A stretch of 64,000 bases of DNA from a virus: IMG/VR virus record IMGVR_UViG_3300042308_001371, positions 1 to 64,000 of that record, one strand, 5' to 3'. The position numbers and the translations under genes are program-made. Shown here one piece after another: positions 199-61,517 of the stretch (the first letter of the stretch is position 1; each line of letters opens with the position of its first letter). The notes under the pieces were generated by a model. The model searched no databases, was not told where the DNA came from, and saw only the letters and a list, made by a program, of their open reading frames with translations.

Positions 199-399
199 TC
201 ACAATAATTCTTTGATCAACGCAGAGGTAGCTACTTGCACAAGCGTTGGTTGGCTGCTATGCTCATCCCACGTTACAATAGCTTTGAACCCTCTTGACAT
301 GTCCATGTCGTAACCACTAGGAAAAACGCTTCGCTCATGCCAGTCTTTTAATAGCTTAGCATATTCTTCTCCAGTTACCCATTTAATCTTATAATTCAT
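199..399 (-). CDS. Small hypothetical protein, C-terminal tag family (SALIKELL)
   Basis: 66 aa; ATGA overlap with upstream gene; shared C-terminal motif. Confidence 0.8.
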   Translation of the reverse strand: MNYKIKWVTGEEYAKLLKDWHERSVFPSGYDMDMSRGFKAIVTWDEHSSQPTLVQVATSALIKELL

Positions 400-629
400 A
401 ATAACTCCTGCTCTAAGCTACTGAGTTCAGTAATAACCCAGCAATCTGGCACAAACCCAGATAGTCTATAACCGGGATGCCTTACAACTTCGTAAGATAC
501 TAATCCTCCAAACTCGGCATAGGTATTAACCTTACTAGAGATTCTTTTAACAATTATACTAGATTTAAAGCTTGCTGTGCTACCAGAATCAGTATACCAA
601 GTAGCGTTATACCAGACATCTATTTTCAT
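396..629 (-). CDS. Small hypothetical protein, C-terminal tag family (ELSSLEQELL)
   Basis: 77 aa; beta-rich; coupled overlaps. Confidence 0.85.
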   Translation of the reverse strand: MKIDVWYNATWYTDSGSTASFKSSIIVKRISSKVNTYAEFGGLVSYEVVRHPGYRLSGFVPDCWVITELSSLEQELL

Positions 630-871
630 AGTAGCTCAACTTCTAAACTGCTAAGTTCTTCTATTATTTCCCAATCATCTGGGTATAAGTGCATGAAATA
701 TGATTGGTTTAGTAGGTCGTCTCCCATTTTAATAATCTGGGCTTTATAGTAGTATTCGTTATGAGAGTATATCATAGGTTCTTGTATAACTTTAATAGTA
801 TAGATTATTTCATCCCATGGGTCGTATACGGAATTACCCAACTTATATAACTTACCAAGCTTTAGCGTCAC
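626..871 (-). CDS. Small hypothetical protein, C-terminal tag family (ELSSLEVELL)
   Basis: 81 aa; GTGA overlap; LKLGKLYK start resembles SH3/KOW-like small barrels. Confidence 0.85.
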   Translation of the reverse strand: MTLKLGKLYKLGNSVYDPWDEIIYTIKVIQEPMIYSHNEYYYKAQIIKMGDDLLNQSYFMHLYPDDWEIIEELSSLEVELL

Positions 872-1065
872 AGTAGTTCTTGCTCTAAACTGCTTAATTC
901 CATTACAAACTCACAGTATTGTTCAGATATGACCGTGGTAGTTATTTTAGAAATTTGTTTATCATAGATATATACTAAGAAAGCCGCAGGGCCATAGCGT
1001 TCATATGGCTTTACATAGTACTCTCCATGGTAGTGCCATACCTTATACCAGCGATTAAGCTTCAT
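868..1065 (-). CDS. Small hypothetical protein, C-terminal tag family (ELSSLEQELL)
   Basis: 65 aa; AGGA upstream of ATG. Confidence 0.85.
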   Translation of the reverse strand: MKLNRWYKVWHYHGEYYVKPYERYGPAAFLVYIYDKQISKITTTVISEQYCEFVMELSSLEQELL

Positions 1066-1091
1066 ATACTATTTCCTATCTACTTGAAATT

Positions 1092-1337
1092 TCAGAATAA
1101 CTCCCTTCCAAGTCCTGTATTCTTAAAGAAAAATACATGCTTCTCTGCTCTCTTAAACTCTTGAGTTTTAGCAACTTGCCTATAATCCCCATATAATCTC
1201 TGGGTAAGTATTCTTATGTTGGCATCTGCTGTAATTAAATAACTGGAATTATTAAGCATTAACTCAACACATCGTTGGAATAGGATTAAACTAGCCTCTT
1301 CTGTGGATATTGTATTCCAGTTATTGATTATACTCAA
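1092..1337 (-). CDS. Small hypothetical protein, C-terminal tag family (TGLGRELF)
   Basis: 81 aa; TTG start overlapping previous stop. Confidence 0.75.
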   Translation of the reverse strand: MSIINNWNTISTEEASLILFQRCVELMLNNSSYLITADANIRILTQRLYGDYRQVAKTQEFKRAEKHVFFFKNTGLGRELF

Positions 1338-1513
1338 CCTAATTCTCTGCCGAGAGAGCTTGAGTATAAGTTTTTTCTAATACCAGATACCTGCTCAAGT
1401 ACATCTATTATTTCTTGTGCCGACATTCCAACAACTTGCTCATCTAATTCTTCTGTGCATTCAGTATTATTAATAAGATAGTTAATTAATTTAATCTGTT
1501 TGTTATTATTCAT
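1334..1513 (-). CDS. 59-aa protein absent from ORF track, C-terminal tag family (SSLGRELG)
   Basis: Hand translation MNNNKQIKLINYLINNTECTEELDEQVVGMSAQEIIDVLEQVSGIRKNLYSSSLGRELG*; GGGAG upstream; fills the gap exactly. Confidence 0.8.
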   Translation of the reverse strand: MNNNKQIKLINYLINNTECTEELDEQVVGMSAQEIIDVLEQVSGIRKNLYSSSLGRELG

Positions 1514-1514
1514 A

Positions 1515-1871: not shown

Positions 1872-1884
1872 TTGTAACCTCTCG

Positions 1885-2094
1885 TTATATTAATTCTTTA
1901 AGTAAGCTGGGAGGATCGTATATATCTGATGTGTGTATGATACAATATCCCTTTTTATGTAAATATTCAAAAACAAAATCCTCGTCAAAATCCTTTCCTG
2001 TATATATTACATAGCATTTAAAATGTTCTGACCATACAACTTGCCCATGTTTTAGGTCAAATAAGTTTAATTTTTTGCCTTTCTCCTCAAACAT
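1885..2094 (-). CDS. Small hypothetical protein, C-terminal tag family (PSLLKELI)
   Basis: 69 aa; LKHGQVVW KOW-like start. Confidence 0.75.
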   Translation of the reverse strand: MFEEKGKKLNLFDLKHGQVVWSEHFKCYVIYTGKDFDEDFVFEYLHKKGYCIIHTSDIYDPPSLLKELI

Positions 2095-2369: not shown

Positions 2370-2606
2370 TTACTTAAGCTCCAAAAGAAGGGGGGTTTCT
2401 TTTTTCATATTTTCAATAAACTTAAGATAGTTCTGCTTAGTTTCAGGACTTACTAAGTAAACATAGCCCTTTTCTCCCCCATCAAATACCTCATCAGTCC
2501 ATAAATATGCAAGATTACAACACATATAGGGAGTTGCCTCTACGCTATAACCAGAGAAGTATAGTGTTAAAAACGTTTGTTCGTTAATCTTAATCATATG
2601 TGTCAC
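2370..2606 (-). CDS. Small hypothetical protein, C-terminal tag family (TPLLLELK)
   Basis: 78 aa. Confidence 0.7.
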   Translation of the reverse strand: MTHMIKINEQTFLTLYFSGYSVEATPYMCCNLAYLWTDEVFDGGEKGYVYLVSPETKQNYLKFIENMKKETPLLLELK

Positions 2607-3010: not shown

Positions 3011-3057
3011 GTATACGGGGAATTAGCATATGTCTTGCTTTATGCTATATTATAATT

Positions 3058-3315: not shown

Positions 3316-4773
3316 ATGGCTAAACCAATAGTAGGTATGGGTGATGATGAGCTTTTAGATTTAATATCTAAAGCAAAGTCCAATGATGATATTCAAAAAA
3401 TACTACTAAATTCCGGTAGGGATCTATCTGATGCACAGGCTTTGAACTCTGATGTGCTAGGTTCTTTAATAGAAAAAAGATTTGGAACAGAAGAAGTAAG
3501 GTCTTCTGCGGCACTTAATGATTACCTAACCAAAATAAAACAATCAGATTATCCTGCATTAGATGAGACCCGAAGACTGCTATATCCAGACGCTAAAGAT
3601 GTCTCAGCTACTTATGGAAAGGGTTATTTTGGAGACGGTACGTTTTATGGAAACCCTACTTTGGAAACTCCTATTAGATTAGGAGGTACTCCTATAACTA
3701 ACGATGATTATACAGATGCTAGAGCAAAAAGAGTTCTTGGACATGAACTATCGCATGCAAATGACTTATTAGCTATTCACTTAAAACGACTTCAAAAAGC
3801 AGATCCCGAGCAATATAAAAAATTAACTGAACGTATTGGAAATATTAGTAGAGGTGGAGAAGCTTTCTTGCAGCATTCTGAAAATATAGCAAATAGATAC
3901 CCAACCGCTGCTGCTAATATGCTTACTCCAGAAAAAGCTGATATTTTAGAATCGATAATTAGAGATCAGTCTCCATCTGTATCTAGGGAAAAACATCTCC
4001 AATTAATTAATAATTATAAAAAAGCATTGACGCAAGAAACGCCCGATTCTCCTGATAAAGCTTTAATGGAAAGGTATATGGGAGTAGATCGCAAGAAAAT
4101 ACCTGATGTTCCGGGAGAAGCTGTACAATTCACTCCAGATAGGGAGTATGTGACTAAGGCCTTGGAGTCTGAATTTGATCCAATAAAAGCAGAGTCTATT
4201 AGGTCTCAAGGTCACCATGCTACTAGACCAGACATAGCGGATGACGTAGGTCATTATGAAGGCAGAAATATTAAAAGGCTCTCTAAAGGGGATGGCTTGT
4301 TAGGAGTAACTGGTCCATTAGGAGCTGCTGTAGAATCAGTAAAAGATCTATATAAAGAAGCTCCTATAGAAGAAAGTTCTAAGCTAGGTAGGCTACATGG
4401 AATTTCCACAGTAGCTGCTAAAGCTTTAGGTCCATTAGCAATTGCTTCTGGAGTTATACCAGTGGCGGCTGACATAAAAGAGGGAAAACCTAATACGGCT
4501 TTAGCTAGAGCTGTTTCTTATGCTGCTCCAATGGGTGCAGAAGATTTAACTGATAAACTTATGCAAACTGCTGATATTAGTGATACTTCCCCGGAATTAC
4601 AAGATCCTGAATATAGAAAGCTTCTAATGCGGATTGGTCAAAAGAGAGTAGAGCGAGGAGGTTCTCCAGTTATTAAAAGTTTCTCCGGAAGAGAAGTAGA
4701 TACATCTAAGACAGAAGATAGTGATTTTTTAAATAGAATTAAGGCACTGCAAGATTTGAAAACACAAGGATAG
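3316..4773 (+). CDS. Putative internal virion protein with HExxH metallopeptidase motif
   Basis: VLGHELSH motif; Gly/Ala-rich hydrophobic C-terminal segment like ejection proteins. Confidence 0.55.
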   Translation: MAKPIVGMGDDELLDLISKAKSNDDIQKILLNSGRDLSDAQALNSDVLGSLIEKRFGTEEVRSSAALNDYLTKIKQSDYPALDETRRLLYPDAKDVSATYGKGYFGDGTFYGNPTLETPIRLGGTPITNDDYTDARAKRVLGHELSHANDLLAIHLKRLQKADPEQYKKLTERIGNISRGGEAFLQHSENIANRYPTAAANMLTPEKADILESIIRDQSPSVSREKHLQLINNYKKALTQETPDSPDKALMERYMGVDRKKIPDVPGEAVQFTPDREYVTKALESEFDPIKAESIRSQGHHATRPDIADDVGHYEGRNIKRLSKGDGLLGVTGPLGAAVESVKDLYKEAPIEESSKLGRLHGISTVAAKALGPLAIASGVIPVAADIKEGKPNTALARAVSYAAPMGAEDLTDKLMQTADISDTSPELQDPEYRKLLMRIGQKRVERGGSPVIKSFSGREVDTSKTEDSDFLNRIKALQDLKTQG

Positions 4774-4774
4774 A

Positions 4775-5601: not shown

Positions 5602-5946
5602 ATGAGCGTATACCACCAACTTGATAATCTTGAAATTGAAAAGCTTAGAAAAAAAGTAGCTGAACTTGAGCTAGAACTATCTAAAGCTCATTCATTACTA
5701 CAGGACAATGATTTATTTGAAGATTTACCTACAATTTCTGATGAAGAAGTAATTTGTGTCAGTGAAATTCATAAGTTAAGAATCGCGTCAGATAATGGAA
5801 TTCTCACTTTAGAGGATGTTAAAGTATTAGATCTACTTGTTAAAAATCTTCTTGCAATTAGAGGAAAGCCAATAGAGGAAAAGAAAGAGAAGAAGAAGGG
5901 TGCTAAATCTGTTGCCGAGCTTCTCAGCATTGTTGATAGAAGATGA
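5602..5946 (+). CDS. Possible terminase small subunit
   Basis: Helical protein overlapping TerL start (ATGA); AAGGA before ATG 5602; positional inference. Confidence 0.45.
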   Translation: MSVYHQLDNLEIEKLRKKVAELELELSKAHSLLQDNDLFEDLPTISDEEVICVSEIHKLRIASDNGILTLEDVKVLDLLVKNLLAIRGKPIEEKKEKKKGAKSVAELLSIVDRR

Positions 5947-7427
5947 GTGAAAAAAAAGAAAGACCTATTTCTAGAGACGAAGCCGTTGTTCAATTATGGG
6001 AGCATGCTGTCTTAGATTATAAATTAACAGAGCCTCAGAAAATTATTAAGAAAGGCATTCTTGAAGATAGTAGTAAGATAAGTGTAGTAATGTGTGCCAG
6101 ACGATTAGGTAAAAGTTATTTAGCTTTATCTATGGCAATAGAGGCATGCCTAAAAGTTCCTGATACTATTGTTAAGTATGTGTTTCCTAAACAAAAAGCT
6201 GCTAAGAAAAACATTATTCCAATAATGAAAACTATTTTGGAAGATTGTCCAAAGCATTTACGTCCTATATTCATGGCGGCTGATCTACTGTATAAATTTC
6301 CAAATGGAAGTGAACTGCAAATGGCTGGTTCGGATAACGGTAACATCGAAAGTATTCGAGGTGGTAACTCTAGTTTAAATATTGTAGATGAGGCTGGATT
6401 TTGTGATGATTTAACATATGCAGTTAGATCTGTGCTTGCTCCAACTACAAAGCTAACGCAGGGTAGAACAATTCTAGTTTCAACCCCTTCAAGGTATGAA
6501 GATCACGAGTTTGTACAGGATTGGGCTTTAAAGTATCAAGCAGAAGGTCGTATTAGAGTATTTACTATTTTCGACAACCCGCAATTTACAGAAGCAATTA
6601 TCAAAGACGCTTTGGATGATTACCCAGATGGTGAGAAAGATCCGGGCTTTAGGCGTGAGTATATGTGTGAAATTGTAAGAAGTGCAGATACTTCTATTCT
6701 ACCTTCATTCAGTTCTGACGTTGAAAAAGTTATCGTAAGATCGGATTATCCTAGACCTATATTCTATGACTCCTATGTTTCTATGGATATTGGGGGATCT
6801 GACTTAACAGCTGTTTTATTTGGATATTATGATTATCTAAATGCTACTACTGTAATTGAAGATGAGCTTATATTTGGTAAAGAAGTAAATACAAAAGCAG
6901 TCGCAGAAGCAATAAGAATAAAAGAATCTCAATTATGGAGGAATACAATAGACGAAAGTGTAATTCCACCGTATCTAAGAATTGCTGATAACAACAATTT
7001 AATTATGTTAACAGACTTACAAAGAGATCATGGGATAACTTTTATCCCAACTAGAAAAGATAACAGGGAAGCTGCTATCAATGCTTTAGACGTAGCATTA
7101 TCTCAGCATAAGGTAGTAATTCATCCTAGATGTACTCATACCTTGTATCATATGAAATTTGCTAGGTGGGATAAGAATAGAAGAAATTTTTTAAAGATTA
7201 AAGATTCCCCCTCAGGTCAAATTAAGGGTGGACACGCGGATGCCCTAGCTGCTATAATCTACTTACATAGGAATATAATAAAAAGTAAAAATCCATACCC
7301 AGTCGGATATGGAGATATTTCTGGATCTGGCGTATTTACATCTCAGCTTAAAAAAGATGAATCAAAAGACAAGTCTGTGAAATCATGGCTATCTAGTATG
7401 GTTTGGAGAAAAGATAGCACTAAGTAG
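5943..7427 (+). CDS. terL: Terminase large subunit
   Basis: Walker A ARRLGKS, Walker B IVDEAG, motif III VSTP, nuclease SMDIG and HADALAA. Confidence 0.95.
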   Translation: MSEKKERPISRDEAVVQLWEHAVLDYKLTEPQKIIKKGILEDSSKISVVMCARRLGKSYLALSMAIEACLKVPDTIVKYVFPKQKAAKKNIIPIMKTILEDCPKHLRPIFMAADLLYKFPNGSELQMAGSDNGNIESIRGGNSSLNIVDEAGFCDDLTYAVRSVLAPTTKLTQGRTILVSTPSRYEDHEFVQDWALKYQAEGRIRVFTIFDNPQFTEAIIKDALDDYPDGEKDPGFRREYMCEIVRSADTSILPSFSSDVEKVIVRSDYPRPIFYDSYVSMDIGGSDLTAVLFGYYDYLNATTVIEDELIFGKEVNTKAVAEAIRIKESQLWRNTIDESVIPPYLRIADNNNLIMLTDLQRDHGITFIPTRKDNREAAINALDVALSQHKVVIHPRCTHTLYHMKFARWDKNRRNFLKIKDSPSGQIKGGHADALAAIIYLHRNIIKSKNPYPVGYGDISGSGVFTSQLKKDESKDKSVKSWLSSMVWRKDSTK

Positions 7428-7491: not shown

Positions 7492-9651
7492 ATGGCTTAT
7501 TATGATAAAAATGAATATTTTGCAGCAAGTGATGATGAGACATTAGTCCTTTATTTACAAAAAAAATCAGATGCTTGGTTTAATTCTCTTATATCTACAG
7601 ATTATTTAGATAAGATTAAAAGAAGTTGGCAAGCATACTACGGCTTCTTCTATGAAGGTGGCCATGCTATTACCTTTGGTGGAGAGACTGGAGAATTAGT
7701 AAATCTACCTATGAACCATTATGGGAACATTGCAAGTCATATCCTAACTATGGTTACTGCTACTAGACCATCTTTTCAAGCAAGATCTGTTAATACTGAT
7801 GTTAGATCTCAGATTCAGACAAATCTAGCCAATGGTCTTTTAGAATATTACATGCGGGATAAAAGATTAGAGCAAGATTTAAAAAGAGCTGTTGAATATG
7901 CTATTGTCATGGGTGCGGGCTATATTAAAATGGAGTGGAACGCTACTACTGGTGAAGTGTATGACTTTATTGAGCCAGAATATAAGCCACTTGTTGACGA
8001 AAGTGGAAACATGCAATACGGTCCTGACGGAGAAGTTATATTTGAAACTGACGAAGATGGCGAAAAGGTTGAACTTAGAGCAGGAGTTCCATTATACAGC
8101 GGTGATATTATATTTAATGTTATGTCGCCTTTTGATGTAGTTTTTGATCCAACTAGATCTGATAGTAATCATGATTGGCAGTTATGTAGAAGTTTTAAAA
8201 ATAAATTTGATTTAATTGCTAAATATCCAGAATTTTCTGAAAAAATTAAAGCTTTAAAAACTAAGTCTGACTTAAATACTACTCGTATTACTATGTCAGC
8301 TTATGATGAAACTACAGATGTTCCAGTTTATGAATTTTTTCATAGACCTACAGAATCACTGCCTAAAGGTAGATATGTTCTATATCTAGACAATGATATT
8401 GTTCTTGAAGATACAGTATTGGTATATAAAAAACTTCCTGTATTTAGAATTGCTTCTAGAGATATTATCGGTACGCCTTTTAGTTATACAGCTATGTTTG
8501 ACCTATTACCAATTCAAGATGCTGTAAACTCTCTCTATTCTACTATTATGACTAACCAAAATACGTTTGGTGTTCAAAACGTATATGTAGAAAGAGGGTC
8601 TGATGTTCAGATGGAACAGATTTCAGATGGACTAAACTTTATTCAAGGTAATCCGGGATTTCAACCTCCTAAAGCTTTAAATCTAACGTCTACTCCTGCA
8701 GAAATATTTAACTTTTTAAAAATGTTAGAATCTTCAATGGAAACTATATCTGGAGTAAATTCGGTTGCTCGTGGTAATCCAGAAGCTCAGCTTACGTCAG
8801 GTAATGCTCTAGCATTAATCCAATCTCAAGCTTTACAGTTTATTTCAGGACTTCAGCAATCATATATACAATTAATTGAAGATGTTGGTACGAATGTTGT
8901 AGAACTTCTTAAAACTTTTGCAAAAACTCCTAGAGTTGCCGCAATTGCTGGTAAATCTAATGTAACTTATATGAAAGAGTTTACATCAGATGATCTTAGC
9001 TCTATTACAAGAGTTATTGTTGATGCGGGTAATGCTCTCGCTCAAACTACAGCTGGAAGAGTAGAAATGGCATCTCAAATGATGCAAATGAGTATTATTA
9101 CTACTCCTGAGCAGTATATATCTGTTATTAATACAGGTAAATTAGAAACTATGACAGAAGGTCAGAACAAGGAGTTATTGCTTGTCAGAGCTGAAAGAGA
9201 ACGCCTTGTGGACGGTACAACTCCCGTGGTGGCTGTACTTACTGATTCTCACTCATTGCATATTAGAGAGCATAAGGCTGTTCTCGCAGATCCTGATTTA
9301 CGTATGGATGCGCAGCTTGTTCAACGAACACTTGCCCATATCCAAGAGCACATTGATATCTTATCTGATCCTAATGTTGCTAATATTCTTACTTTGTTAG
9401 GCGAAACACCTTTAGGGCCAATTGGCGGGGGTATTCCTTCTCCGCAAGCTGCAGCTCCTCAACAGCCTAATCAGCAAGGTCAAGAACAAATTCCTCCATT
9501 ATTAGAAAATCCAGAAGCACAGTCTGTTGCTGTACAACAAAATATGGGACCACTACCTAGTCCAGCACAACCAGCTGGAGTAGCTCAGGGTATATTACCT
9601 GCACAACCAACCACGCCAGAACAACTGGCTATAAATAACTTAGGAGTATAG
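7492..9651 (+). CDS. Portal protein
   Basis: 719 aa directly after TerL; P22-like portal features (METISGVNSVARG, QDAVNSLYS); Pro/Gln-rich tail. Confidence 0.88.
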   Translation: MAYYDKNEYFAASDDETLVLYLQKKSDAWFNSLISTDYLDKIKRSWQAYYGFFYEGGHAITFGGETGELVNLPMNHYGNIASHILTMVTATRPSFQARSVNTDVRSQIQTNLANGLLEYYMRDKRLEQDLKRAVEYAIVMGAGYIKMEWNATTGEVYDFIEPEYKPLVDESGNMQYGPDGEVIFETDEDGEKVELRAGVPLYSGDIIFNVMSPFDVVFDPTRSDSNHDWQLCRSFKNKFDLIAKYPEFSEKIKALKTKSDLNTTRITMSAYDETTDVPVYEFFHRPTESLPKGRYVLYLDNDIVLEDTVLVYKKLPVFRIASRDIIGTPFSYTAMFDLLPIQDAVNSLYSTIMTNQNTFGVQNVYVERGSDVQMEQISDGLNFIQGNPGFQPPKALNLTSTPAEIFNFLKMLESSMETISGVNSVARGNPEAQLTSGNALALIQSQALQFISGLQQSYIQLIEDVGTNVVELLKTFAKTPRVAAIAGKSNVTYMKEFTSDDLSSITRVIVDAGNALAQTTAGRVEMASQMMQMSIITTPEQYISVINTGKLETMTEGQNKELLLVRAERERLVDGTTPVVAVLTDSHSLHIREHKAVLADPDLRMDAQLVQRTLAHIQEHIDILSDPNVANILTLLGETPLGPIGGGIPSPQAAAPQQPNQQGQEQIPPLLENPEAQSVAVQQNMGPLPSPAQPAGVAQGILPAQPTTPEQLAINNLGV

Positions 9652-9652: not shown

Positions 9653-9700
9653 ATGGCTAAATGTGGATCAAAAAAAGGTAAAGGCAAGAAAGGTAAGTAG
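9653..9700 (+). CDS. 15-aa Lys/Gly-rich micropeptide MAKCGSKKGKGKKGK
   Basis: AGGAG 6 nt before ATG; fits exactly between portal stop and next ATG. Confidence 0.55.
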   Translation: MAKCGSKKGKGKKGK

Positions 9701-9701
9701 T

Positions 9702-10208
9702 ATGCCAGCTAGGAATGATCTTGGTCATAAAGATTGTCTAGAATGTGGCAACCTTATTATTCATAAGATTAAAAGAGATATAGAACGTAAAAAATTCTGT
9801 TCTAGAGCGTGTTTGGGTATGTTTACAGTAAAACATAAACTATCTAAAGATCACATGAGTAAAATGTGGGTTTTAGGATGTAGTCCAGAAGCTAATGTTA
9901 AAAAGGGACATAAGGGAGAAAGCCATCCTCAGTATAAAAAGGATAGAAGCCAAGTTAAGAGTAAACGGTCTAGATATGAAAATACTGTTTGGACTAGAAG
10001 TATTTTTGAAAGAGATAATTTTACTTGTCAGGATTGTAGACAACGTGGTGGAAGATTACAAGCCGATCACATAAAACCATACTGCATTTGCTCTGAAGAT
10101 GAGAAGTGGAATTTAGAAAATGGAAGAACTTTATGTGAACCTTGTCATAAGAAGACAGATACTTATGGAATTAAAATGGTACATAAATTAAGAAAGGAAA
10201 AAGAATAA
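9702..10208 (+). CDS. HNH endonuclease
   Basis: RDNFTCQDC...LQADHIKP...NGRTLCEPCH; N-terminal CLEC/FCSRAC zinc motif. Confidence 0.9.
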   Translation: MPARNDLGHKDCLECGNLIIHKIKRDIERKKFCSRACLGMFTVKHKLSKDHMSKMWVLGCSPEANVKKGHKGESHPQYKKDRSQVKSKRSRYENTVWTRSIFERDNFTCQDCRQRGGRLQADHIKPYCICSEDEKWNLENGRTLCEPCHKKTDTYGIKMVHKLRKEKE

Positions 10209-48307: not shown

Positions 48308-48382
48308 GAATACTCCATAAAATGAAACAAACAAAATCGTTTGTAAATAAAATATACTAAATTAGTAAACAAATAACAAGGA

Positions 48383-48688
48383 TTATTTTATTAAAATAAC
48401 TCCATTATCAAAACCGCCTCTTTCCAAGCACTTATCTTCTCTTTTTTTAAATACTTCTTCTACAATATTTTGCTTAACTACTAAAGCTTTTAAAACTTCT
48501 AAAACATCAGCTAACTCTTCTATCAGATTTTCATTACTGGTAGCATTTAATACCTCATTAGCTTCTTCTACTAATTTATTCTTTAATAATAAAAGCATTT
48601 CATCTTCGGAAGCTACTCTAGTAACTAAAGTATCTCCTCTCTCCTTAAATACAAACTCCACAATTTTATCTCTTACCAACTTTTCCAT
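48383..48688 (-). CDS. MazG/PRA-PH-like NTP pyrophosphohydrolase
   Basis: KLVRDKI...KLVEEANE...EELADVLEV...RGGF. Confidence 0.85.
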   Translation of the reverse strand: MEKLVRDKIVEFVFKERGDTLVTRVASEDEMLLLLKNKLVEEANEVLNATSNENLIEELADVLEVLKALVVKQNIVEEVFKKREDKCLERGGFDNGVILIK

Positions 48689-48843
48689 TAAAATAACTCT
48701 TTTCCAAGGGATGTTTTTTTTAATTCTATCTCTGCTTCACGAATACTAAGGATCTCTATAGCTTCTTCTACAGATAAACAATTAGACTCTAGTAAAATCA
48801 TTAGTATTCGAATATCAGGGATACTAGAAGTAGGAAAGCTCAT
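48688..48843 (-). CDS. 51-aa protein absent from ORF track, C-terminal tag family (TSLGKELF)
   Basis: Hand translation MSFPTSSIPDIRILMILLESNCLSVEEAIEILSIREAEIELKKTSLGKELF*; ATGA and TAATG overlaps. Confidence 0.8.
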   Translation of the reverse strand: MSFPTSSIPDIRILMILLESNCLSVEEAIEILSIREAEIELKKTSLGKELF

Positions 48844-50663: not shown

Positions 50664-50897
50664 CTATAAGTTAAGTGTTGAAGCGGATTCATTCAATCTT
50701 TGTTTAACCATATCTTCAGATATGTGTAGCAGATCAGCAATGTCTGATACAGATTCCCCACTAATATACAACATGCATACATACCAGTTAGACTCTATAA
50801 AATAGTTGGTATCCACTGTTAGTCTAATCTCAGATACGGTGGGATACTTATAAATAATTCTATGAATTTTAAATATAATTCTAGCTATTGTTTTCAT
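50664..50897 (-). CDS. Small HTH-like protein
   Basis: SGESVSDIADLLHISEDMVKQRL. Confidence 0.55.
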   Translation of the reverse strand: MKTIARIIFKIHRIIYKYPTVSEIRLTVDTNYFIESNWYVCMLYISGESVSDIADLLHISEDMVKQRLNESASTLNL

Positions 50898-51226
50898 TAT
50901 CTTAAAAAGAAATTAAGTATTTGATCTACCATTAAATACATCTCTGCTCCATGTTCTCCGAATATTTCAGCACAAACTTCCTCCATTTGATCTGCGGTTA
51001 AGCTAGAAGAATTAATACTGCAACACATTACATAAGCATGCATAAGTTCATGTCTAATGTAGTCAGGAGATAATTCAGATAGCTTAAAGTATATTTCGTG
51101 ATCTTTGGTATAAGTAATTGCGTGACTATCTGTACCATGCTTCCTATTATAAGTAGAACTAGCCTGAGCATAGAATTTCCATTCTATACCTTTTATCTTG
51201 GCTGTAAAAAATTTAGGCCTATTCAT
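50897..51226 (-). CDS. Small HExxH metallopeptidase-like protein
   Basis: IRHELMHA...EE. Confidence 0.7.
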   Translation of the reverse strand: MNRPKFFTAKIKGIEWKFYAQASSTYNRKHGTDSHAITYTKDHEIYFKLSELSPDYIRHELMHAYVMCCSINSSSLTADQMEEVCAEIFGEHGAEMYLMVDQILNFFLR

Positions 51227-51714: not shown

Positions 51715-52500
51715 TTATTTACTCCTATAAGCTTTTAATGCATCCTGTACAACTTCAGTCTTATCGAACTCAGATAGAACTATAAATAATTCTTCTGTAG
51801 CAAGTACGTCCATTTTGTTGTACAGCTCCATTTCTTTCCATGCAGCAACATTACCTTTACCACACTCGTCCCACAGCATGAATCCCGGAAACTTACTATG
51901 TGCTAACTTCTTAAGCTTACAGAACTTCTTAGACATCCACTCAAGCTTATTGCTAACAAATTTAAAATGTTTTTTAGCTAATTTTAAAGTATCTATTTTT
52001 TTATAATCACTAGGACTTCCTAGTTTATATTCTAAGAACTTAGCATTGAGCTTTTTAATATCAAAACTATCAGAATTTTGACCTATGATGATATCAGCCT
52101 CATCCATTAACTTCCAAATAGGCTTTAGTAGTTCCTTTTCTTTTGACTTATTGCCCTTAACATCTTTATAAAGAACCTCATTAGAATCAATCCACTTAGC
52201 ACTCCAAGAGAAGATGCCGCCTTCATCTACTATCTGATTAAGGGATATATTTTGATCAAATAACCCCCAAACCTTAGCAGTCATGGGTTTAGTTTCAATA
52301 TCTAGAATTAATACTTTTCTAGGTGATTTTTCAATAGAAGAGCCATACACTTCGATGCAATGCTTTATAGAATCCTGAGTTCTTACATTAGCAGGGTATT
52401 TGTCATTAAACTTCCTAGCAATATCTTTTCTAGAAAATCCTCTCCTATGAAGATTTAAAACAAAATTAATTTCTTTTGTAAGCCAAGATTTCTTAATCAT
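51715..52500 (-). CDS. RNase H-fold (DEDD) exonuclease with N-terminal HTH-like region
   Basis: LDIET, GQNSDSFD, IDTL, YNKMDV. Confidence 0.85.
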   Translation of the reverse strand: MIKKSWLTKEINFVLNLHRRGFSRKDIARKFNDKYPANVRTQDSIKHCIEVYGSSIEKSPRKVLILDIETKPMTAKVWGLFDQNISLNQIVDEGGIFSWSAKWIDSNEVLYKDVKGNKSKEKELLKPIWKLMDEADIIIGQNSDSFDIKKLNAKFLEYKLGSPSDYKKIDTLKLAKKHFKFVSNKLEWMSKKFCKLKKLAHSKFPGFMLWDECGKGNVAAWKEMELYNKMDVLATEELFIVLSEFDKTEVVQDALKAYRSK

Positions 52501-52796
52501 TCTAGTTCCTTTAATAATCCAGTTTTCTTTTTAATTCTAGACTCGTGGTAATAAGCTTCTATCATTCTAACACCAGTTGCCTTAACTGGTAAACAAAAAT
52601 ATGTATAAGGCCTAGCATTACTGGTTATCATAAGAATTTCAAATTCTATATCACTAATCATAACGTATTCATTTATCTTAAATTTAGGCTTTTTAACCTT
52701 CCTATATATCCAATAGTAAAATTGCACGAACTTGTATCCATGCATGAGTATCATATTTAGCGTAAGTAGTATAGATAGTATAGTAATAGTTACCAT
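52497..52796 (-). CDS. Membrane-anchored small protein, C-terminal tag family (TGLLKELE)
   Basis: N-terminal TM; PKFKINEYV KOW-like. Confidence 0.75.
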   Translation of the reverse strand: MVTITILSILLTLNMILMHGYKFVQFYYWIYRKVKKPKFKINEYVMISDIEFEILMITSNARPYTYFCLPVKATGVRMIEAYYHESRIKKKTGLLKELE

Positions 52797-52927
52797 TACA
52801 ACTTACTTCCTAGTAATATTAAAGTCGATATTAAAGTAATTGCTTGAATTAGTATTTGAGCAAGTTGCAATTTAGATTGTAGTCTTTGAAGTTTAATTCG
52901 TTCTTGATGGTAATTATCTTGGTTCAT
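52796..52927 (-). CDS. 43-aa single-TM protein absent from ORF track
   Basis: MNQDNYHQERIKLQRLQSKLQLAQILIQAITLISTLILLGSKL*; coupled to M15 gene. Confidence 0.6.
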   Translation of the reverse strand: MNQDNYHQERIKLQRLQSKLQLAQILIQAITLISTLILLGSKL

Positions 52928-53346
52928 GGAAGAAATATTCTCTTTTTAGATTTAGGTGGAACAATCTGTAAATGTACCCAATTTGTCATCTTTCCAACTG
53001 TAGCAGACTTATCTTCCATATACAAGTTATATTTAGCAAGAATTTCAGGAGTTAGCTTATTAGCCAAAGATTGATTTTTATCATCTAGAATATCAATAGC
53101 ATTTCCAAGCATATGGTTAGATTTTTTAGCAGCACCCTTAGTAGCAGCATTTACTTCACTTGGACGAAACCCAGAAGATACCTTAGCCTTAGATATACCC
53201 AATCCACTTAATAGAGCATTTACATGAATTAAAAGAGTTTCCAGATTAGATATTACCTCGGGAGTGAGTTCTGGATGAACCTCCCTATCTGGGTAAGATC
53301 CGGAAGAAGTAACGGCATCCTTTAAATTAATCACTCTATCTCCCAA
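52924..53346 (-). CDS. Peptidase M15 family, candidate endolysin
   Basis: SSGFR..N....GA..SNH..G.AID and WVH motifs. Confidence 0.85.
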   Translation of the reverse strand: MGDRVINLKDAVTSSGSYPDREVHPELTPEVISNLETLLIHVNALLSGLGISKAKVSSGFRPSEVNAATKGAAKKSNHMLGNAIDILDDKNQSLANKLTPEILAKYNLYMEDKSATVGKMTNWVHLQIVPPKSKKRIFLP

Positions 53347-54641: not shown

Positions 54642-54875
54642 TTATAAAAGCTCTTTTTCTAAACTTGATATTTTTCTTATAAATTCATCCTCATAGCAAT
54701 AGCACTCATTCACTGGCATCTCGTTAGCTTCCAGATCCAACCATTTAATACTAATAATGCCATCCCTATAGTCTAATATTAAATAATGCGCATCAGCACT
54801 ATCGTCAAACCATATATCCCCAACTTCAAAATTCTTCTTTTCCCCATTTTTCATAAATTTCTTTTTTAACTCCAC
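54642..54875 (-). CDS. Small hypothetical protein, C-terminal tag family (KISSLEKELL)
   Basis: FEVGDIW KOW-like; start uncertain. Confidence 0.75.
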   Translation of the reverse strand: MELKKKFMKNGEKKNFEVGDIWFDDSADAHYLILDYRDGIISIKWLDLEANEMPVNECYCYEDEFIRKISSLEKELL

Positions 54876-55020
54876 ACTTAGTACAATCTTCTACAGTAGA
54901 TATTATAAGTACTGTTTTTTTCCAATTATGGCTACAATACTTCTGCGACCAGTCTGAGTGTTTTTCTGGAACAGGAGGAGGAGGTGGGTAGTCATCGTCA
55001 TCATTATCCATGTACCACAT
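54826..55020 (-). CDS. Small protein with C.H.W...C..CG motif
   Basis: 64 aa. Confidence 0.6.
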   Translation of the reverse strand: MWYMDNDDDDYPPPPPVPEKHSDWSQKYCSHNWKKTVLIISTVEDCTKCGVKKEIYEKWGKEEF

Positions 55021-55469
55021 TAAAACTCCAGTGCTATACCTAAACCGATTCTTTTAGTAGTGTCCAATGTTCCAACAATGGATAAATTACCAAGCAGAGG
55101 AGATACTGCTACTACTCCAAAATTAGTCTTTTCTGAAAATTTGCCAAGATCTTTTAATGCTAATACTCCAATTGTAATATTAGATTTTTTAAATTTAGTC
55201 TCCTCTGAATAAGATACACTTGATTGTGAATCAGAAGAACTGTCTTCTTCTATTGTAGTATCTACAGTTGAGCTTCCATCAGCATTCGTAGTTTCCTTAG
55301 TAGTAGTTACTTTTTTCTTTTTTTCTTTCTTAACTTCAACTTGTACATATTTAATAACTTCTTTAACTTCTTGTTTTGGCTGTATCACAAATCTACCAAC
55401 TAAAAGTGAAATTAGTCCCACTATAAGTAAATTTTTATACTGACTAATATTTTTCATTAAAAATCCCAA
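55020..55469 (-). CDS. Membrane-anchored protein, possibly spanin-like
   Basis: N-terminal TM, charged linker, C-terminal beta strands ending IGLGIALEF. Confidence 0.55.
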   Translation of the reverse strand: MGFLMKNISQYKNLLIVGLISLLVGRFVIQPKQEVKEVIKYVQVEVKKEKKKKVTTTKETTNADGSSTVDTTIEEDSSSDSQSSVSYSEETKFKKSNITIGVLALKDLGKFSEKTNFGVVAVSPLLGNLSIVGTLDTTKRIGLGIALEF

Positions 55470-55484: not shown

Positions 55485-55679
55485 TTATTCGAGTTCTTTT
55501 CCTAGAGAGGTTCTTCGCAGTAACTCCTGACCTAATTCTTCATCCGTAAATTCGCTTAATATAGAGTAGTCTTTTAGATAACCCCAGTACCCATCTATCC
55601 CTACTTTATACGTAGTTAGCTTAGGGTACAATTCCTCTAATTCTATCTTAGTCTTTTTTGTTGTCATCTTTGTTACCAT
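55485..55679 (-). CDS. Small hypothetical protein, C-terminal tag family (TSLGKELE)
   Basis: 64 aa. Confidence 0.7.
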   Translation of the reverse strand: MVTKMTTKKTKIELEELYPKLTTYKVGIDGYWGYLKDYSILSEFTDEELGQELLRRTSLGKELE

Positions 55680-55852: not shown

Positions 55853-56155
55853 TTAGCATAAGAATTCTTTAATACGCTCAAGCAGGGATAGCTTACGTAC
55901 ATCCTCAATACAGTACCACATGGTATAATAGAAATACATGCCAGCATTATTGAATTTCCAACACACTTTTACCTGATCAGGCTCAACTATAATAACTTTA
56001 CCAGTTCCAAGTATAGCTAAAGACTCACATAGCATTTGCTCAAAAGAAGAAGCATTCACTCCTCCACGAAGTTGCCAACCATCAAATGCGTCATCAATGT
56101 TATGATAAAAATTAAATCCTCTACTAGTCATCTTAACAAGTGCGCCTTTTTTCAT
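55853..56155 (-). CDS. Hypothetical protein (KOW/SH3-like start)
   Basis: MKKGALVK. Confidence 0.65.
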   Translation of the reverse strand: MKKGALVKMTSRGFNFYHNIDDAFDGWQLRGGVNASSFEQMLCESLAILGTGKVIIVEPDQVKVCWKFNNAGMYFYYTMWYCIEDVRKLSLLERIKEFLC

Positions 56156-56917: not shown

Positions 56918-57346
56918 TAGTGACCTTCCATTTTATGTCTAAGTTTTTATCATACACAAGAACATACCTGTGCTTAACACTCCTACCCCTCCACTCTCCC
57001 TCTATTCCTTTAACCTTACCTCTACTATGCTTAATAAATGTTCCATCTGACTGCTTTATGAAGAAATCCTTCTTAGCCTCAGTTAGTCCATAGTACTTGA
57101 AGTTACAAGCTTTGTAAACAGTGCCAGAGTGGAATGTAGAATCTGCGTATGATAAAATAGCTCTTACAGATTTTTCCTTCCTTAAAAGTCTAATAGATCG
57201 AGACACAAACCAAGAAGCTAAATTATGTTCTTGTTAAAGCCACTTTTAAATCCCTTAGAGATGTCTTTTAAATAATGGAACTTTAATAGAATGTCAGCAG
57301 CTTGTTGCTTGGATACTAAGCCTAACTTAAAGGATTCCTTACTCAT
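56904..57346 (-). pseudogene. Disrupted Mom-like (GNAT-fold) DNA modification gene
   Basis: 5' part 57346-57218 (MSKESF...KFHYLKDISKGFKSGFN, then stop) and 3' part in another frame (EHNLASWFVSRSI...ILSYADSTFHSGTVYKACNFKYYG). Confidence 0.7.
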
Positions 57347-59625
57347 TAATGCCCCTCTCGAAGATTATACGCGAATTGTGGAATTGCTACAAGAGGTACT
57401 GAAATTTTATTAGTCTGCTCCATACATCTCTGAACAATCTCAGCCACTTCGTCCTTCTGACTTTCATTTGCTGATATTATAGCCTGATCATGTACGCTAA
57501 GGCTAACCCAAGCATCTAAACCCCTCAGCAAGAATTCTCTACTCATGGCAATACACGCTCGGCTAATGATAGAAGTAGCAGCTGCTTGAATTGGAAAGTT
57601 CAAAGCATTATTTAGTAAGTTGTTGTACTTACTTCGCATAATCTTAACCTCATCCATTGAAATTCGCTCTTTATAAGCAATTCTCCCCATTGCCTTGTAG
57701 TCTAACAAGCTATCCTTATACTTCTTATACATATCTCTTACTTCTGGCAAGTGTCTAACCCTGCCATATTTAGAGGTAACTTTTCCAGTTGTTTTAGCTT
57801 CATGCAAATAACCATCCATTGCTTGTTTCAATAGAGGAAATGCTTTAAAATAGTTGTCAATCAAATCCTGAGCCTCTTCTTTTGAAATACCTAATAACTG
57901 GGAAATCTTTCCAGCCTTTGCACCGTATCTAATTCCTAAAGAATAGCCTTTAGCGTCTTGTCTTAATTTTGGATGAGTATTTTTTAAAAAGTTAGGTGCT
58001 TTCTTATCAGCAGAAAATCCTTCCAAACCATGTGCCATTATAGCCACCTTAGAGTAGAAGTCTTCCCCATTAATGAAAATATCCCTAAGGGGCTGATCTC
58101 CTGCATCATCAGCAAACACAGATGGTTCCAAACTAGAGTAATCGTCGTCGATAAAAACATAACCAGACTTTGGAACTATTAACTCTCTTAAAACATTAGT
58201 ATAATAAATAATCCTTGCATCATCTTCTCCATCTTCTAATGGTCTACTTAATTGCTGCAAATCTCCACCGTATCTTCCAGAAGTAGTAGCGTGTTGCTTG
58301 AAAGTAGGATAGTAAATTCCATCCTCTTGCATTTCCATGAATCTGTCAAAATAGCTGCTTTTGATCTTATTCATCTTGTTGAATACTCGCAGCTCTAAAG
58401 CCCAAGCAAATCCATAAGTTTCTGCCAAGTGTTCAACGAAGTCTTCATTGAACTGACCCTTCCCACCCTTTGTTTTTGATAGCGGAGCAATCCCCATTCT
58501 CTCAAACACGATCTTGCCGAGCTGATCTTTTGATGCAAGGTTAATGGGATACTGCTGATCTTGGAGCAATAGCCCCATCTGCGCACCCCTCCAGTCGAAA
58601 TTGGGAAGTATAGTTCCATTTGCAAGAAAATCGTAGTGCTCTGGGTGTGTGTCTTTTAAAACCTCAATGCTCTTTTTTGTAAGTTGGAACTTACCACTTT
58701 TTAGTACTGGTAGGAATCTTCCCAAACCACAAAGCTCACAAAAGTATTGCTTCAGCTTGCCACCTGATAATGGGTATTCTTCGTTCAGCAAATCGTCCAC
58801 AAACTCTTTTGCCTCAGGAGTCGCCATAATAGCCTCAACTACGGCTTTCTCTGTCCTCGCTAATTCTAGCTTGATTTCCCCAAGGTACTTCTCAAGCTTC
58901 GGCATATCAAGGTAAACTCCGCGGTGCTCCATTTTTATTGTCACTAGCTTATAAAGCGGCATAACTTCGTCAACATAGAATAAGTCAGATAAGCCTTGCA
59001 ATTTCATTTCTGAGTGAAAGTAGTGAAATAGTCGCAAAGTTATGTCAGTGTCAGCAATTGCGTACTTAGCCAAGATTGGCAAGTCGCCTTTGAACATTTG
59101 CTTATTCTCTCTTGTCCAACTCCCACCATTGGCTTTGACATTAAGCTCAAGCTCAATCTGCTCCTGATTGGCTGCGTCCTGATTGTCAAGACCTATTTCA
59201 GCAGCATAAATGAGCGCATTCTCTTTCAGAGCAAACGGACCCTCCTCCGCTAGTGTGTGCTTCATAAGCTGAGTGTCAGCGTAGAGAGCTGAGATTAAAT
59301 TGACCTTAAAGAAGTTAGCAGTGACTCGCACATCAAAACTGGCATTGTGCATAATCAGACGTTTTTGCGACAGCAATTCTAAGAATTTAGTAGCAACAGA
59401 CATTGCCCACTTCTGTTCATCAAGTTGCTGAGTTACTTTGTTCCAAACGAATGTGGGCAAGTACCAACCAGTACCCACAATGCACGAGAATGAGAATCCT
59501 ATGATTTTTACCTTGCGAACATTCAATCCAGTGGTTTCAGTGTCATAAGCCACTACGTCAGCATTTTCTAGCTCACTCAACGCAGTCTGAGAATTCATGA
59601 GATTTATAATTTGGTAGGATTTCAT
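57346..59625 (-). CDS. polA: Family A DNA polymerase with 3'-5' exonuclease
   Basis: YDTETTG, HNASFD, YAIADT; DYSSLE (motif A), RQDAKGYSLGIRYG (motif B), NFPIQ, VHD (motif C). Confidence 0.95.
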   Translation of the reverse strand: MKSYQIINLMNSQTALSELENADVVAYDTETTGLNVRKVKIIGFSFSCIVGTGWYLPTFVWNKVTQQLDEQKWAMSVATKFLELLSQKRLIMHNASFDVRVTANFFKVNLISALYADTQLMKHTLAEEGPFALKENALIYAAEIGLDNQDAANQEQIELELNVKANGGSWTRENKQMFKGDLPILAKYAIADTDITLRLFHYFHSEMKLQGLSDLFYVDEVMPLYKLVTIKMEHRGVYLDMPKLEKYLGEIKLELARTEKAVVEAIMATPEAKEFVDDLLNEEYPLSGGKLKQYFCELCGLGRFLPVLKSGKFQLTKKSIEVLKDTHPEHYDFLANGTILPNFDWRGAQMGLLLQDQQYPINLASKDQLGKIVFERMGIAPLSKTKGGKGQFNEDFVEHLAETYGFAWALELRVFNKMNKIKSSYFDRFMEMQEDGIYYPTFKQHATTSGRYGGDLQQLSRPLEDGEDDARIIYYTNVLRELIVPKSGYVFIDDDYSSLEPSVFADDAGDQPLRDIFINGEDFYSKVAIMAHGLEGFSADKKAPNFLKNTHPKLRQDAKGYSLGIRYGAKAGKISQLLGISKEEAQDLIDNYFKAFPLLKQAMDGYLHEAKTTGKVTSKYGRVRHLPEVRDMYKKYKDSLLDYKAMGRIAYKERISMDEVKIMRSKYNNLLNNALNFPIQAAATSIISRACIAMSREFLLRGLDAWVSLSVHDQAIISANESQKDEVAEIVQRCMEQTNKISVPLVAIPQFAYNLREGH

Positions 59626-59633
59626 AGATTCCT

Positions 59634-59831
59634 TTAGAGTAGTTCTTTTAATAAATTAGAGGCAGGGGAATACTTCTTCTTAAACTGAGCAGAGTTTACA
59701 GTCCACATGCCCTTAGATCCATCCTTTATATTACAAAACTCATAGGTAACATCGTCGTAGATTATAATGAGTATTATAGCAGAATACGTGAAGTCCTTAC
59801 GGATGTAACACTTTCCCTCTTCTAATTTCAT
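59634..59831 (-). CDS. Small hypothetical protein, C-terminal tag family (SNLLKELL)
   Basis: MKLEEGKCY start. Confidence 0.75.
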   Translation of the reverse strand: MKLEEGKCYIRKDFTYSAIILIIIYDDVTYEFCNIKDGSKGMWTVNSAQFKKKYSPASNLLKELL

Positions 59832-60046
59832 AATAACTCCATCATTAGCGAGCTATGGTATTTCCCGTCTACCCAATATTTTATACCATCTATGTTTATT
59901 AAGTATACAAAACGTAATCCAAACGGATCTATTGCTTCAATTGGGTGAATCGTTCCGATTATATTAGCAGCTTTAGTTGGGCATAGGGTTAGTATGTTAG
60001 TAACTACTATTATATCATTTATATTTAAATTCTTTATACTTCCCAT
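59828..60046 (-). CDS. Small hypothetical protein, C-terminal tag family (SSLMMELL)
   Basis: 72 aa. Confidence 0.75.
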   Translation of the reverse strand: MGSIKNLNINDIIVVTNILTLCPTKAANIIGTIHPIEAIDPFGLRFVYLINIDGIKYWVDGKYHSSLMMELL

Positions 60047-60285
60047 CCAAAATCCCCATAAGCTAATAAATAAATGGATTCGGCTTTAAGTCTTTCAAGT
60101 TTGCTTATTTTACCAGTTTTAAAATAATTAACTATTATATCCTCTATGTCATCCATATTATGAAATCCTGCTAGAATATTATTACACTCATCTAGCAAAG
60201 CGTCATCACTTAAGCTATCTAATTCCATATAAAGAGTATCACTCTCAAAACATATATCATTATAGTCTACTAGAGTTTGTTTCAT
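60034..60285 (-). CDS. Hypothetical acidic protein
   Basis: 83 aa; ATGA overlap. Confidence 0.7.
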   Translation of the reverse strand: MKQTLVDYNDICFESDTLYMELDSLSDDALLDECNNILAGFHNMDDIEDIIVNYFKTGKISKLERLKAESIYLLAYGDFGWEV

Positions 60286-60509
60286 AATAATTGTCTCTCC
60301 AATGATGAAAGTGGAAGAATAAACACATCATCTGTAAAATGTGTATATAAAATTCCCATTACGTTATCATAGTATCGTATTCTTACTTTAAAGTCATCTA
60401 CTTCTTCTAATACAATAAACCAAAATGTGCTATCACTAGTATCTTCATTTAAAGAATACCGTTCATTAATTATCAAATTATTTGTTTTTGTCTTTTGCAA
60501 TAGTACCAT
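60282..60509 (-). CDS. Small hypothetical protein, C-terminal tag family (LSSLERQLL)
   Basis: 75 aa. Confidence 0.75.
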   Translation of the reverse strand: MVLLQKTKTNNLIINERYSLNEDTSDSTFWFIVLEEVDDFKVRIRYYDNVMGILYTHFTDDVFILPLSSLERQLL

Positions 60510-61332
60510 CTTTTATAGATCTTTTAATTTGATACATATCTTTTTTATCTAAATCTTGAGGAGAAATTTTAGACATAACCTCCTCTATTATTGTAGCATC
60601 AACACCAGAAAGGGCAAGTGAAAAGACGCATGCATTTAATGAATTAATCCACAATCCCGATAATCCAGTATGTGCATTGGTCAAGAAGAATTCAACCGCT
60701 TCAGGTATAGTATCCCTTTCCTTGCCATATAATAATTTAACTATTTCGGAAAGCTCCTCGGGTACAATGACTTGTGCTTCATTTAAATTGTACTTAGCTT
60801 CTATAACCTCTTTAGCTTTTTTAGGAATTAGAAACTCACCATCCTGCCAAAATCCATCATCTATCTTAGAAGGGCAGTAGTACCTAGCAGTATCGGAACA
60901 CTGCCTGTCAAGTTCTGGGAATTTTTCAGATAGCCAGTTCCAAGTCTCATCAAAATCCTTTGAATTTAAAATAGTCTTAGCTAATGGAAATACTAGCCTA
61001 AACTTATGTAACTCATTAGTATGACTAGGACTTGGCAGACATAGGCAGGATAATCCAATTTGCTGTATTCTATGCTCAGCTTGTGGAATAGTTAAACCAC
61101 TGTCTACATCTAAAGTCATAAAATCAGTAGATATAAAATGCTCATCAAGCCTAGTTCCAGAAAATATACTGGGACTCCAAGCATAGGATGATATATAAGA
61201 TATTAGATCTTCTTCATTTATAATATCAACTACTTTAGGCAAATTAGGAGTAGAGGCAAGGAATGCTTGCTGTATTTTATCTTGTTTATTCTTAGGTAAG
61301 AAATTAGCTAAGGGATATATTGATAGTCTCAT
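60478..61332 (-). CDS. Primase-polymerase (AEP-like)
   Basis: LDVD, SPSH...KFRLVFPL, D..C.D.AR motifs; adjacent to helicase. Confidence 0.75.
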   Translation of the reverse strand: MRLSIYPLANFLPKNKQDKIQQAFLASTPNLPKVVDIINEEDLISYISSYAWSPSIFSGTRLDEHFISTDFMTLDVDSGLTIPQAEHRIQQIGLSCLCLPSPSHTNELHKFRLVFPLAKTILNSKDFDETWNWLSEKFPELDRQCSDTARYYCPSKIDDGFWQDGEFLIPKKAKEVIEAKYNLNEAQVIVPEELSEIVKLLYGKERDTIPEAVEFFLTNAHTGLSGLWINSLNACVFSLALSGVDATIIEEVMSKISPQDLDKKDMYQIKRSIKDGTIAKDKNK

Positions 61333-61517
61333 AATAATTGTATTTCCAATGATGATAGTTTTACTAATCCCATTTCAAAATTAGACTTATAATACCACGA
61401 AGTTTCTCTAAAGATAGATGAATTATATTTTATTACAACAAAAACTAATTGATCAGTAACTTCAGTTATTTCAAATATAGCCCAATAATCATTTCTGTAT
61501 ATATCCCCTTTTTTCAC
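61329..61517 (-). CDS. Small hypothetical protein, C-terminal tag family (LSSLEIQLL)
   Basis: MKKGDIY start; wedged between helicase and primase. Confidence 0.75.
   Translation of the reverse strand: MKKGDIYRNDYWAIFEITEVTDQLVFVVIKYNSSIFRETSWYYKSNFEMGLVKLSSLEIQLL

Follow-up and report, generated by a model that had tools for sequence, protein, structure and literature searches.

A lineage-specific C-terminal peptide shared by small early-strand proteins of a lake-water phage, and a possible role in docking

Why do so many small proteins encoded on one strand of a bacteriophage genome end in nearly the same eight residues? The genome is IMG/VR record IMGVR_UViG_3300042308_001371, a single 81,765-bp phage contig (G000); the window analyzed here is its first 64 kb (positions 1 to 64,000). 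A preliminary description of the window listed 16 minus-strand open reading frames (ORFs) with a common C-terminal tail and took the tail to be an N-capped short helix that labels a variable set of proteins. We found all 16 ORFs where they had been placed, with the endings quoted: Leu at −6 and −2 (counted from the C-terminus) and E/Q at −3 are present in 16 of 16, and S/T at −8 in 15, the exception being the Pro of the ORF that begins at 1885. Extending the analysis to the whole genome and to related phages supports a short N-capped helix under selection as a peptide, whose sequence is uniform in each phage and changes between phages in many proteins at once. At a probability of about 0.5, we suggest that the tail is a handle by which the proteins dock on one partner that co-evolves with it.

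A terminal motif of small minus-strand proteins

Scanning ORF ends for the motif, a check proposed in the preliminary description, gave strong C-terminal enrichment, and relatives proved to be tagged too. The pattern [STP]xLxx[EQ]L occurs 32 times in the 512 ORFs of at least 30 amino acids (aa) found in six frames of the whole genome. In 24 of the 32 it stands exactly one residue from the C-terminus, always on the minus strand; fewer than 0.3 such terminal hits are expected from the internal rate. In total, the genome contains 25 tagged ORFs of 51 to 143 aa, all on the minus strand, which account for ∼27% of the early-strand ORFs (25 of 94); nine lie beyond the window, at 64616, 64780, 65016, 66189, 68773, 72565, 74251, 75303, and 78617. 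The earlier observation that the tail is on no plus-strand virion gene and no large enzyme holds genome-wide for virion genes and enzymes.

Among the 25 tails, −8 is Ser in 16 and Thr in 7, −7 is Ser in 17, and −6 and −2 are always Leu. Position −5 is Glu in 11, Leu in 6, and Gly in 4; −4 is Lys in 10; −3 is Glu in 22, Gln in 2, and Ala in 1. The last residue is Leu in 11 and is otherwise free (L, I, M, F, E, T, G, and K all occur). On a helical wheel, −7, −6, −3, and −2 fall on one face, and −8 occupies a typical N-cap position.

A shared ending could also arise from nucleic acid, if an ATGA overlap used for translational coupling, a ribosome-binding sequence, or a recombination sequence happened to be read in frame. 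Tagged genes do overlap the next start by 4 nucleotides (nt) more often than untagged ones (11 of 23 versus 8 of 78), the K/R-E codons at −4/−3 can give purine-rich, Shine-Dalgarno-like strings 5 to 8 nt before the next start, and GAG is somewhat overused at −3 (12 of 22 versus 37% genome-wide). However, the mean pairwise identity of the 24-nt tag DNA is 0.510, compared to 0.508 ± 0.009 for resampled synonymous codons; the Leu, Ser, and Glu codons of the conserved positions match genome usage, those for Leu and Ser varying freely. The motif is kept in tagged genes followed by gaps of 19 to 192 nt and is absent from untagged genes that overlap their neighbors, and in the A-type phages introduced below Ala replaces Glu on all genes. 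Because the tag DNA is no more alike than random synonymous recoding would make it, selection appears to act on the peptide. A nucleic acid origin is extremely improbable, and the codon test effectively excludes a DNA motif, a recombination linker, or a Shine-Dalgarno sequence as the explanation.

The tail differs between phages as a set

Relatives were collected from IMG/VR around the capsid, polymerase, and ClpX-like genes, together with three near-complete genomes (G001 to G003). Tag type is uniform inside each contig and differs between contigs. The E type (SSLxxELL) is found in G000, G003, and contigs L017 to L026. The A type, T[PDE]L..AL., is carried by 38 to 41 ORFs of the complete 84.7-kb G001 and by 19 ORFs of the 15.7-kb contig L016; a search for further A-type genomes returned G001 itself only. 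On 16 ORFs of G002 we found a W type, HP[IT]LVKLW[RQ]LD, followed by 1 to 8 residues, and contig L058 has an intermediate type, [ST]PL..EL. Three tail positions shift together between the E and A types: −8 from S to T, −7 from S to E/P/D, and −3 from E to A. On the conserved face, one helical turn separates −7 from −3, and the changes at these two positions are separable, because L058 carries the intermediate type. The consensus is [ST][SPDE]Lxx[EA]Lx. No tail cluster was found in three distant contigs that share the ClpX-like gene (G004 to G006), nor were tags present in the first 50 kb of Flavobacterium phage immuto.

These comparisons bear on what had been proposed for the tail itself. A free C-terminus is not among its constant features: the W variant continues beyond the motif, the ORF at 55853..56155 has one extra residue, and database relatives are extended. 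A short N-capped helix that labels many different proteins alike is supported, as is its selection at the peptide level.

Within the E type, 32 ortholog pairs are 95% identical at the four key tail positions, 71% at the other tail positions, and 47% in their bodies. The 99-aa protein encoded at 52497..52796 (minus strand, as are all tagged ORFs given below) has 27 homologs at 48 to 80% identity, in which the last nine residues (KTGLLKELE) are unchanged and the three residues before them (I, K, and K) are invariant or nearly so.

When the last nine residues of 119 tagged proteins were removed, the bodies fell into 71 BLAST clusters, and inside these clusters the tail tracks the phage and not the protein family. 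Comparing E-type with A-type phages by reciprocal best hits yielded eight pairs; in six of them an E tail faces an A tail. An all-alpha family (81 aa in G000, 1092..1337) ends in TGLGRELF or TGLGKQLF versus CPLRKALD in G001, at 61% body identity. In the membrane protein family of 52497..52796, TGLLKELE is replaced by SALTKALF in L016 or SDLLKSLL in G001, and barrel proteins are also among the reciprocal pairs. Pairs matched to G001 by synteny or body cluster agree: SALIKELL faces TELMKALL (199..399, 66 aa), SSLEVELL faces TPLEVALL (626..871, 81 aa; SSLEKELL in G003), SSLGRELG faces TELGRALL (1334..1513, 59 aa with a helical-looking body; TSLGKELN in G003), and TPLLLELK faces RPLLKALL (2370..2606, 78 aa). 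Even the variant tag of the 100-aa ORF at 55853..56155 follows phage type despite its extra residue (..IKEFLC versus ..CALLN in the L016 ortholog). Orthologs from seven or more families, with bodies of different types, thus switch together. The simplest explanation is a constraint that all of these proteins share and that lies outside each of them.

The switch does not simply reflect whole-genome divergence, because the replication genes form a mosaic that cuts across tag types. PolA is 78% identical between G000 (E type) and L016 (A type) and is absent from G001 to G003, and the DnaB-like protein is 88 to 90% identical across E and A types.

The bodies that carry the tail

The bodies had been described as dissimilar. 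This does not hold for most of them, which belong to one divergent mini-barrel family, but it does hold for the all-alpha, membrane-anchored, and other bodies. Most tagged proteins have a KVGD-like N-terminal hairpin. Searches with the 25 tagged proteins gave no Pfam match at an E value of <0.03 and three weak PHROG matches of unknown function; ESM Atlas scores for a tagged protein, up to 0.83, were not usable.

As the representative of the barrel family we modeled the 62-aa protein encoded at 61329..61517 (SSLEIQLL) with AlphaFold2 (AF2), using a 66-sequence alignment (predicted local distance difference test [pLDDT] score, 90.3). The model is a five-stranded small barrel, SH3/Tudor/KOW-like, at residues 1 to 54, with the tag helix at residues 56 to 61, 2 to 3 residues after the last strand. 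It matches FeoA, DUF1653, the UvrD/PcrA Tudor domain, CarD, and HspQ with VIA Z values of 5.6 to 6.2, which are generic for SH3-like folds and do not show family membership; the root mean square deviation from the first four is 1.8 to 2.6 over 47 to 58 residues. FeoA and DUF1653 align as far as residues 60 to 61 and the Tudor domains to residue 54 only.

The model of the all-alpha protein at 1092..1337 (pLDDT, 85.6) shows a body of five helices, with the tag helix apart from them at residues 75 to 80; a fold search with it found no relative (Z ≤ 5.0). The models show the tail on no fewer than two unrelated predicted folds, each time as a helix of its own at the C-terminus, set off by a short break. 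The tag is also carried by a 105-aa family and a 143-aa protein. In the 99-aa protein at 52497..52796, an N-terminal hydrophobic segment, probably a membrane anchor, is followed by basic residues; its gene adjoins a 43-aa hydrophobic ORF and the gene of an M15 peptidase. Together the three (52497-53346, minus strand) look like a lysis cluster, and the tag would therefore also be on a probable lysis-related membrane protein.

A profile built from 66 tagged barrels was searched against 1.84 billion representatives (E ≤ 0.001). It matched 154 proteins, and among the best 150, 86 are small; their tails are of the A type in 54 and the E type in 23, the others being slightly variant or extended. With only 154 matches, the small ones again tagged, the barrel family is confined to this clade.

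The barrel-type ORF at 54642..54875 (77 aa, SSLEKELL) has its best G001 body matches in proteins ending TDLTKALL, TDLEKALI, and TPLLKALL. The remaining tagged ORFs of the window are those at 396..629 (77 aa) and 868..1065 (65 aa), both ending SSLEQELL; 1885..2094 (69 aa, PSLLKELI); 48688..48843 (51 aa, TSLGKELF); 55485..55679 (64 aa, TSLGKELE); 59634..59831 (65 aa, SNLLKELL); 59828..60046 (72 aa, SSLMMELL; its G003 ortholog ends SSLMEELF); and 60282..60509 (75 aa, SSLERQLL).

Do the tails need a reader at all? The helix could be intrinsic, either a capping helix of the barrel or an element for self- or hetero-association, in which case uniformity within a genome would result from family expansion or mutual compatibility. 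One fold and the KVGD hairpin do account for most tagged proteins, in G002 all 16 tagged proteins look like paralogues when aligned, the helix begins close behind the last strand at high pLDDT, and an SH3-like barrel plus C-terminal helix is a common architecture, as in FeoA and DUF1653. Yet the tail is also on the all-alpha protein, the membrane protein, the 105-aa family, and the 143-aa protein, and the non-barrel orthologs switch from E to A together with the barrels. Moreover, the tail is invariant while barrel cores are 11% identical per column, and a glutamate sits on its conserved face. We consider it doubtful that an intrinsic role explains the tails.

A possible docking handle and candidate readers

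The tag is uniform within each genome and changes in concert between genomes, across unrelated bodies, as the working model of a shared docking handle has it. The handle would be a two-turn amphipathic helix that starts with a Ser/Thr N-cap, and its conserved face (−7, −6, −3, and −2) would fit a groove of one shared partner protein. Partner and handle would co-evolve, so that each phage lineage has its own version. In such a system the handle would be fused mostly to fast-diversifying SH3/Tudor-like mini-barrels, and also to unrelated small proteins that are all-alpha or, in the lysis-type cluster, membrane anchored; the variable bodies might bind different targets while the common handle ties all of them to one effector or platform. 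We infer that such a reader exists, and lean toward a phage-encoded over a host-encoded protein, because close phage relatives differ at the binding face.

Several points weigh against a docking handle. No reader was found, and no phage gene accompanies the tags, and only the tags, in the genomes compared. The tag helix may also, or only, pack on its own domain; AF2 places the barrel-family helix right after the last strand (block means, 88 and 78). Where only the barrels are concerned, apparent concerted change could stem from one ancestor whose descendants expanded separately in each lineage. Were the reader a host protein, the switches would follow from differences between hosts and not from co-evolution with a phage gene.

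The search for a reader covered several candidates. The preliminary description had connected the tag with the phage's own ClpX-like protein, whose gene (45533-46459) is present in four of four E-type genomes checked. This connection fails on distribution: the gene is absent from the tagged complete genomes G001 and G002 and present in G004 to G006, where no tags were found, and the ClpX-like protein was rejected as the reader on these grounds. A ClpP-family protease (47543-48334, minus strand) is an unlikely reader as well; its gene is not part of the head module, its N-terminus is a clear signal peptide, and by its sequence it is probably exported, rather than acting on proheads or as a cytoplasmic partner in ClpXP. 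One AAA+ protein alone, which is MoxR-like, is shared by the four complete genomes. As a separate observation, this protein (70432-71619 in G000; L045:8432-9619) ends in ..NSDIPF, resembling the C-terminal tip of single-stranded DNA-binding protein (SSB), and that of G003 ends in ..EEIPF; the orthologs in G001 and G002 lack the tip, which is unusual on a MoxR ATPase.

Two zincin proteins were also considered. The zincin-VWA protein (69145-70338, minus strand) has an intact DxSxS motif. A small zincin of 109 aa (50897-51226, minus strand; HELMH at residue 59) has a syntenic counterpart in every E-type and A-type phage, and in the Atlas it falls close to M78- or DA1-like viral clusters. Other small zincins occur in G002, and G000 encodes a further one at 81074-81448. 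When the 62-aa tagged protein was paired with the VWA-zincin and with the 109-aa zincin in a complex prediction, the score was 0.00, which gives no verdict and is evidence neither way. Gene content subtraction between tagged phages and the supposedly tagless G002 failed, because G002 turned out to carry the third tag type; it leaves ∼20 core proteins, too many to name a reader, and Pfam and PHROG searches of the core unknown proteins returned nothing useful.

Proteolysis offers another account of the tails, in which they would act as a degron or timer marking early accessory proteins for joint clearance by an ATP-dependent protease, either one of the host (Lon, FtsH, or ClpXP) or a machine of the phage. 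The tail is C-terminal and hydrophobic with an acidic residue, and it is found only on small early-strand proteins, never behind the candidate late-promoter motif described below. The phage carries ClpX-like, MoxR-like, VWA-zincin, and small zincin genes, the first of them in every E-type genome checked, and there is a precedent in lambda, some of whose regulators have terminal degrons read by host proteases. C-terminal degrons in general include the ssrA tag, the ClpX C-motifs, and the FtsH and Lon tails of those lambda regulators; the present tails resemble the ssrA/ClpX type in position and in their hydrophobic penultimate residue. They differ in having no LAA-type end, a free last residue, and, as the W variant shows, a motif that is not always terminal. 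Neither a fixed end with a free carboxylate nor consistent co-occurrence with the ClpX-like gene was found, and the ClpP-like protein, with its signal peptide, is probably exported. In addition, the tail is a confidently predicted short helix abutting a folded domain rather than a floppy end, and if conserved host proteases read the tails, a switch between close relatives would be unexpected. Clearance by a protease is therefore an unlikely function for the tails.

A docking handle could also be part of something larger. One speculative and, in our estimate, improbable form is an undescribed adaptor system in which 25 to 45 mini-binders and a few other proteins carry a handle that is read by a single phage-encoded partner and recoded together in each lineage. 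The partner might gather, position, or process the tagged proteins plus the host proteins they hold, and recoding might be driven by host sensors that recognize so common a peptide.

Comparison with known terminal peptides

Short C-terminal peptides that dock several proteins on one hub are known from phage and bacterial replisomes: the tails of T4 gp43, gp33, and gp55 dock on the gp45 clamp, the acidic tails of T7 gp2.5 and gp4 on gp5, and the SSB C-terminal tip acts similarly. As in these systems, the present tail is shared by several proteins and better conserved than their bodies. In the T4, T7, and SSB cases, however, it is 3 to 5 known replication or transcription enzymes that share a known hub, compared to 25 to 45 ORFan mini-proteins here. 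Our PolA, DnaB-like, primase-like, ERF, exonuclease, and PD-(D/E)XK proteins lack the tail, and its consensus does not match QL[SD]LF, SLDFLF, or DDDIPF. Unlike those acidic or aromatic tips, the tail is a Leu-x3-Leu helix, and from one close relative to another the whole set of tails changes together.

Encapsulin cargo-loading peptides and microcompartment encapsulation helices are terminal peptides on unrelated cargo that are read by one shell protein. They vary with shell type and are often a small amphipathic helix after a linker, which the present tails resemble; our SLGxEL subtype is superficially like encapsulin loading peptides of the SLGIGSL type. We know of no compartment for an 82-kb phage. 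Unlike compartment cargo, the tagged genes are on the early strand, opposite the gene for the HK97-type capsid of this phage, and without the candidate late-promoter motif. Loading into the capsid also fits poorly because one tagged protein is membrane anchored.

In its logic, the proposed docking system resembles modular adaptor families. F-box, SOCS-box, and poxvirus ankyrin/PRANC proteins present variable binding modules on a conserved C-terminal handle that leads into one machine; like them, the tagged proteins form a large, fast-evolving set on a common C-terminal handle. Those handles are domains of 40 to 50 residues that bind Skp1 or Elongin in eukaryotes, whereas the tail is 8 to 11 residues long and belongs to a bacteriophage.

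Shared terminal docking peptides are thus already known. In the literature, we found no report of a lineage-recoded tail spanning a genome on dozens of ORFan mini-proteins. ORFans joined by this one short peptide account for between a quarter and two fifths of all early-strand genes in these phages, which are abundant in lakes. If one partner reads the tag, a single pull-down would open dozens of uncharacterized genes to functional study, and a variable binder library on a common handle would be a viral strategy whose known examples so far are mostly eukaryotic. The naturally occurring variants (E, PE, A, and W) offer a ready specificity series for interface mapping or for orthogonal peptide-receptor pairs.

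Genome context and further observations

The phage recurs in lake-water metagenomes (at least 24 studies). Its nearest named relative by PolA is Flavobacterium phage immuto, at 43% only. The 17-kb relative L058 (CALBDR010000415.1) is binned in a "Candidatus Melainabacteria" metagenome-assembled genome; such binning is weak host evidence.

Virion genes occupy the plus strand from 2950 to 44900 and include the large terminase (5943-7427), portal (7492-9651), major head protein (12244-13500), and tail fiber proteins. The sequence CACCCTTATA has seven exact copies, all on the plus strand ahead of virion gene blocks (3001, 5186, 12108, 13723, 24046, 29800, and 37113), and none on the minus strand; from this distribution it is a candidate late-promoter element. 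Replication and accessory genes are on the minus strand (199-2911 and 44868-81448), whose products include, besides the ClpX-like, MoxR-like, zincin-VWA, and M15 peptidase proteins already discussed, a family A polymerase, a DnaB-like helicase, ERF, an exonuclease, a primase-like protein, a PD-(D/E)XK nuclease, and a ribonucleotide reductase-like protein. The polymerase gene (57346-59625, minus strand) is present in G000, L016 to L019, and L058; the replication module has been exchanged independently of virion genes and tag type.

A second shared ending, ..[GS][IL]x[IL][DE]F at the C-terminus, is found on two further minus-strand products, encoded at 45026-45430 (..HALSLEF) and 55020-55469 (..GIALEF), the latter with an N-terminal hydrophobic segment; it recurs on relatives in L016, L027, L028, and L058. 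On the plus strand, an HNH endonuclease gene (9663-10208) sits between the portal and head genes, a position at which relatives have no such gene, and an HExxH motif also occurs in a 485-aa protein encoded at 3316-4773.

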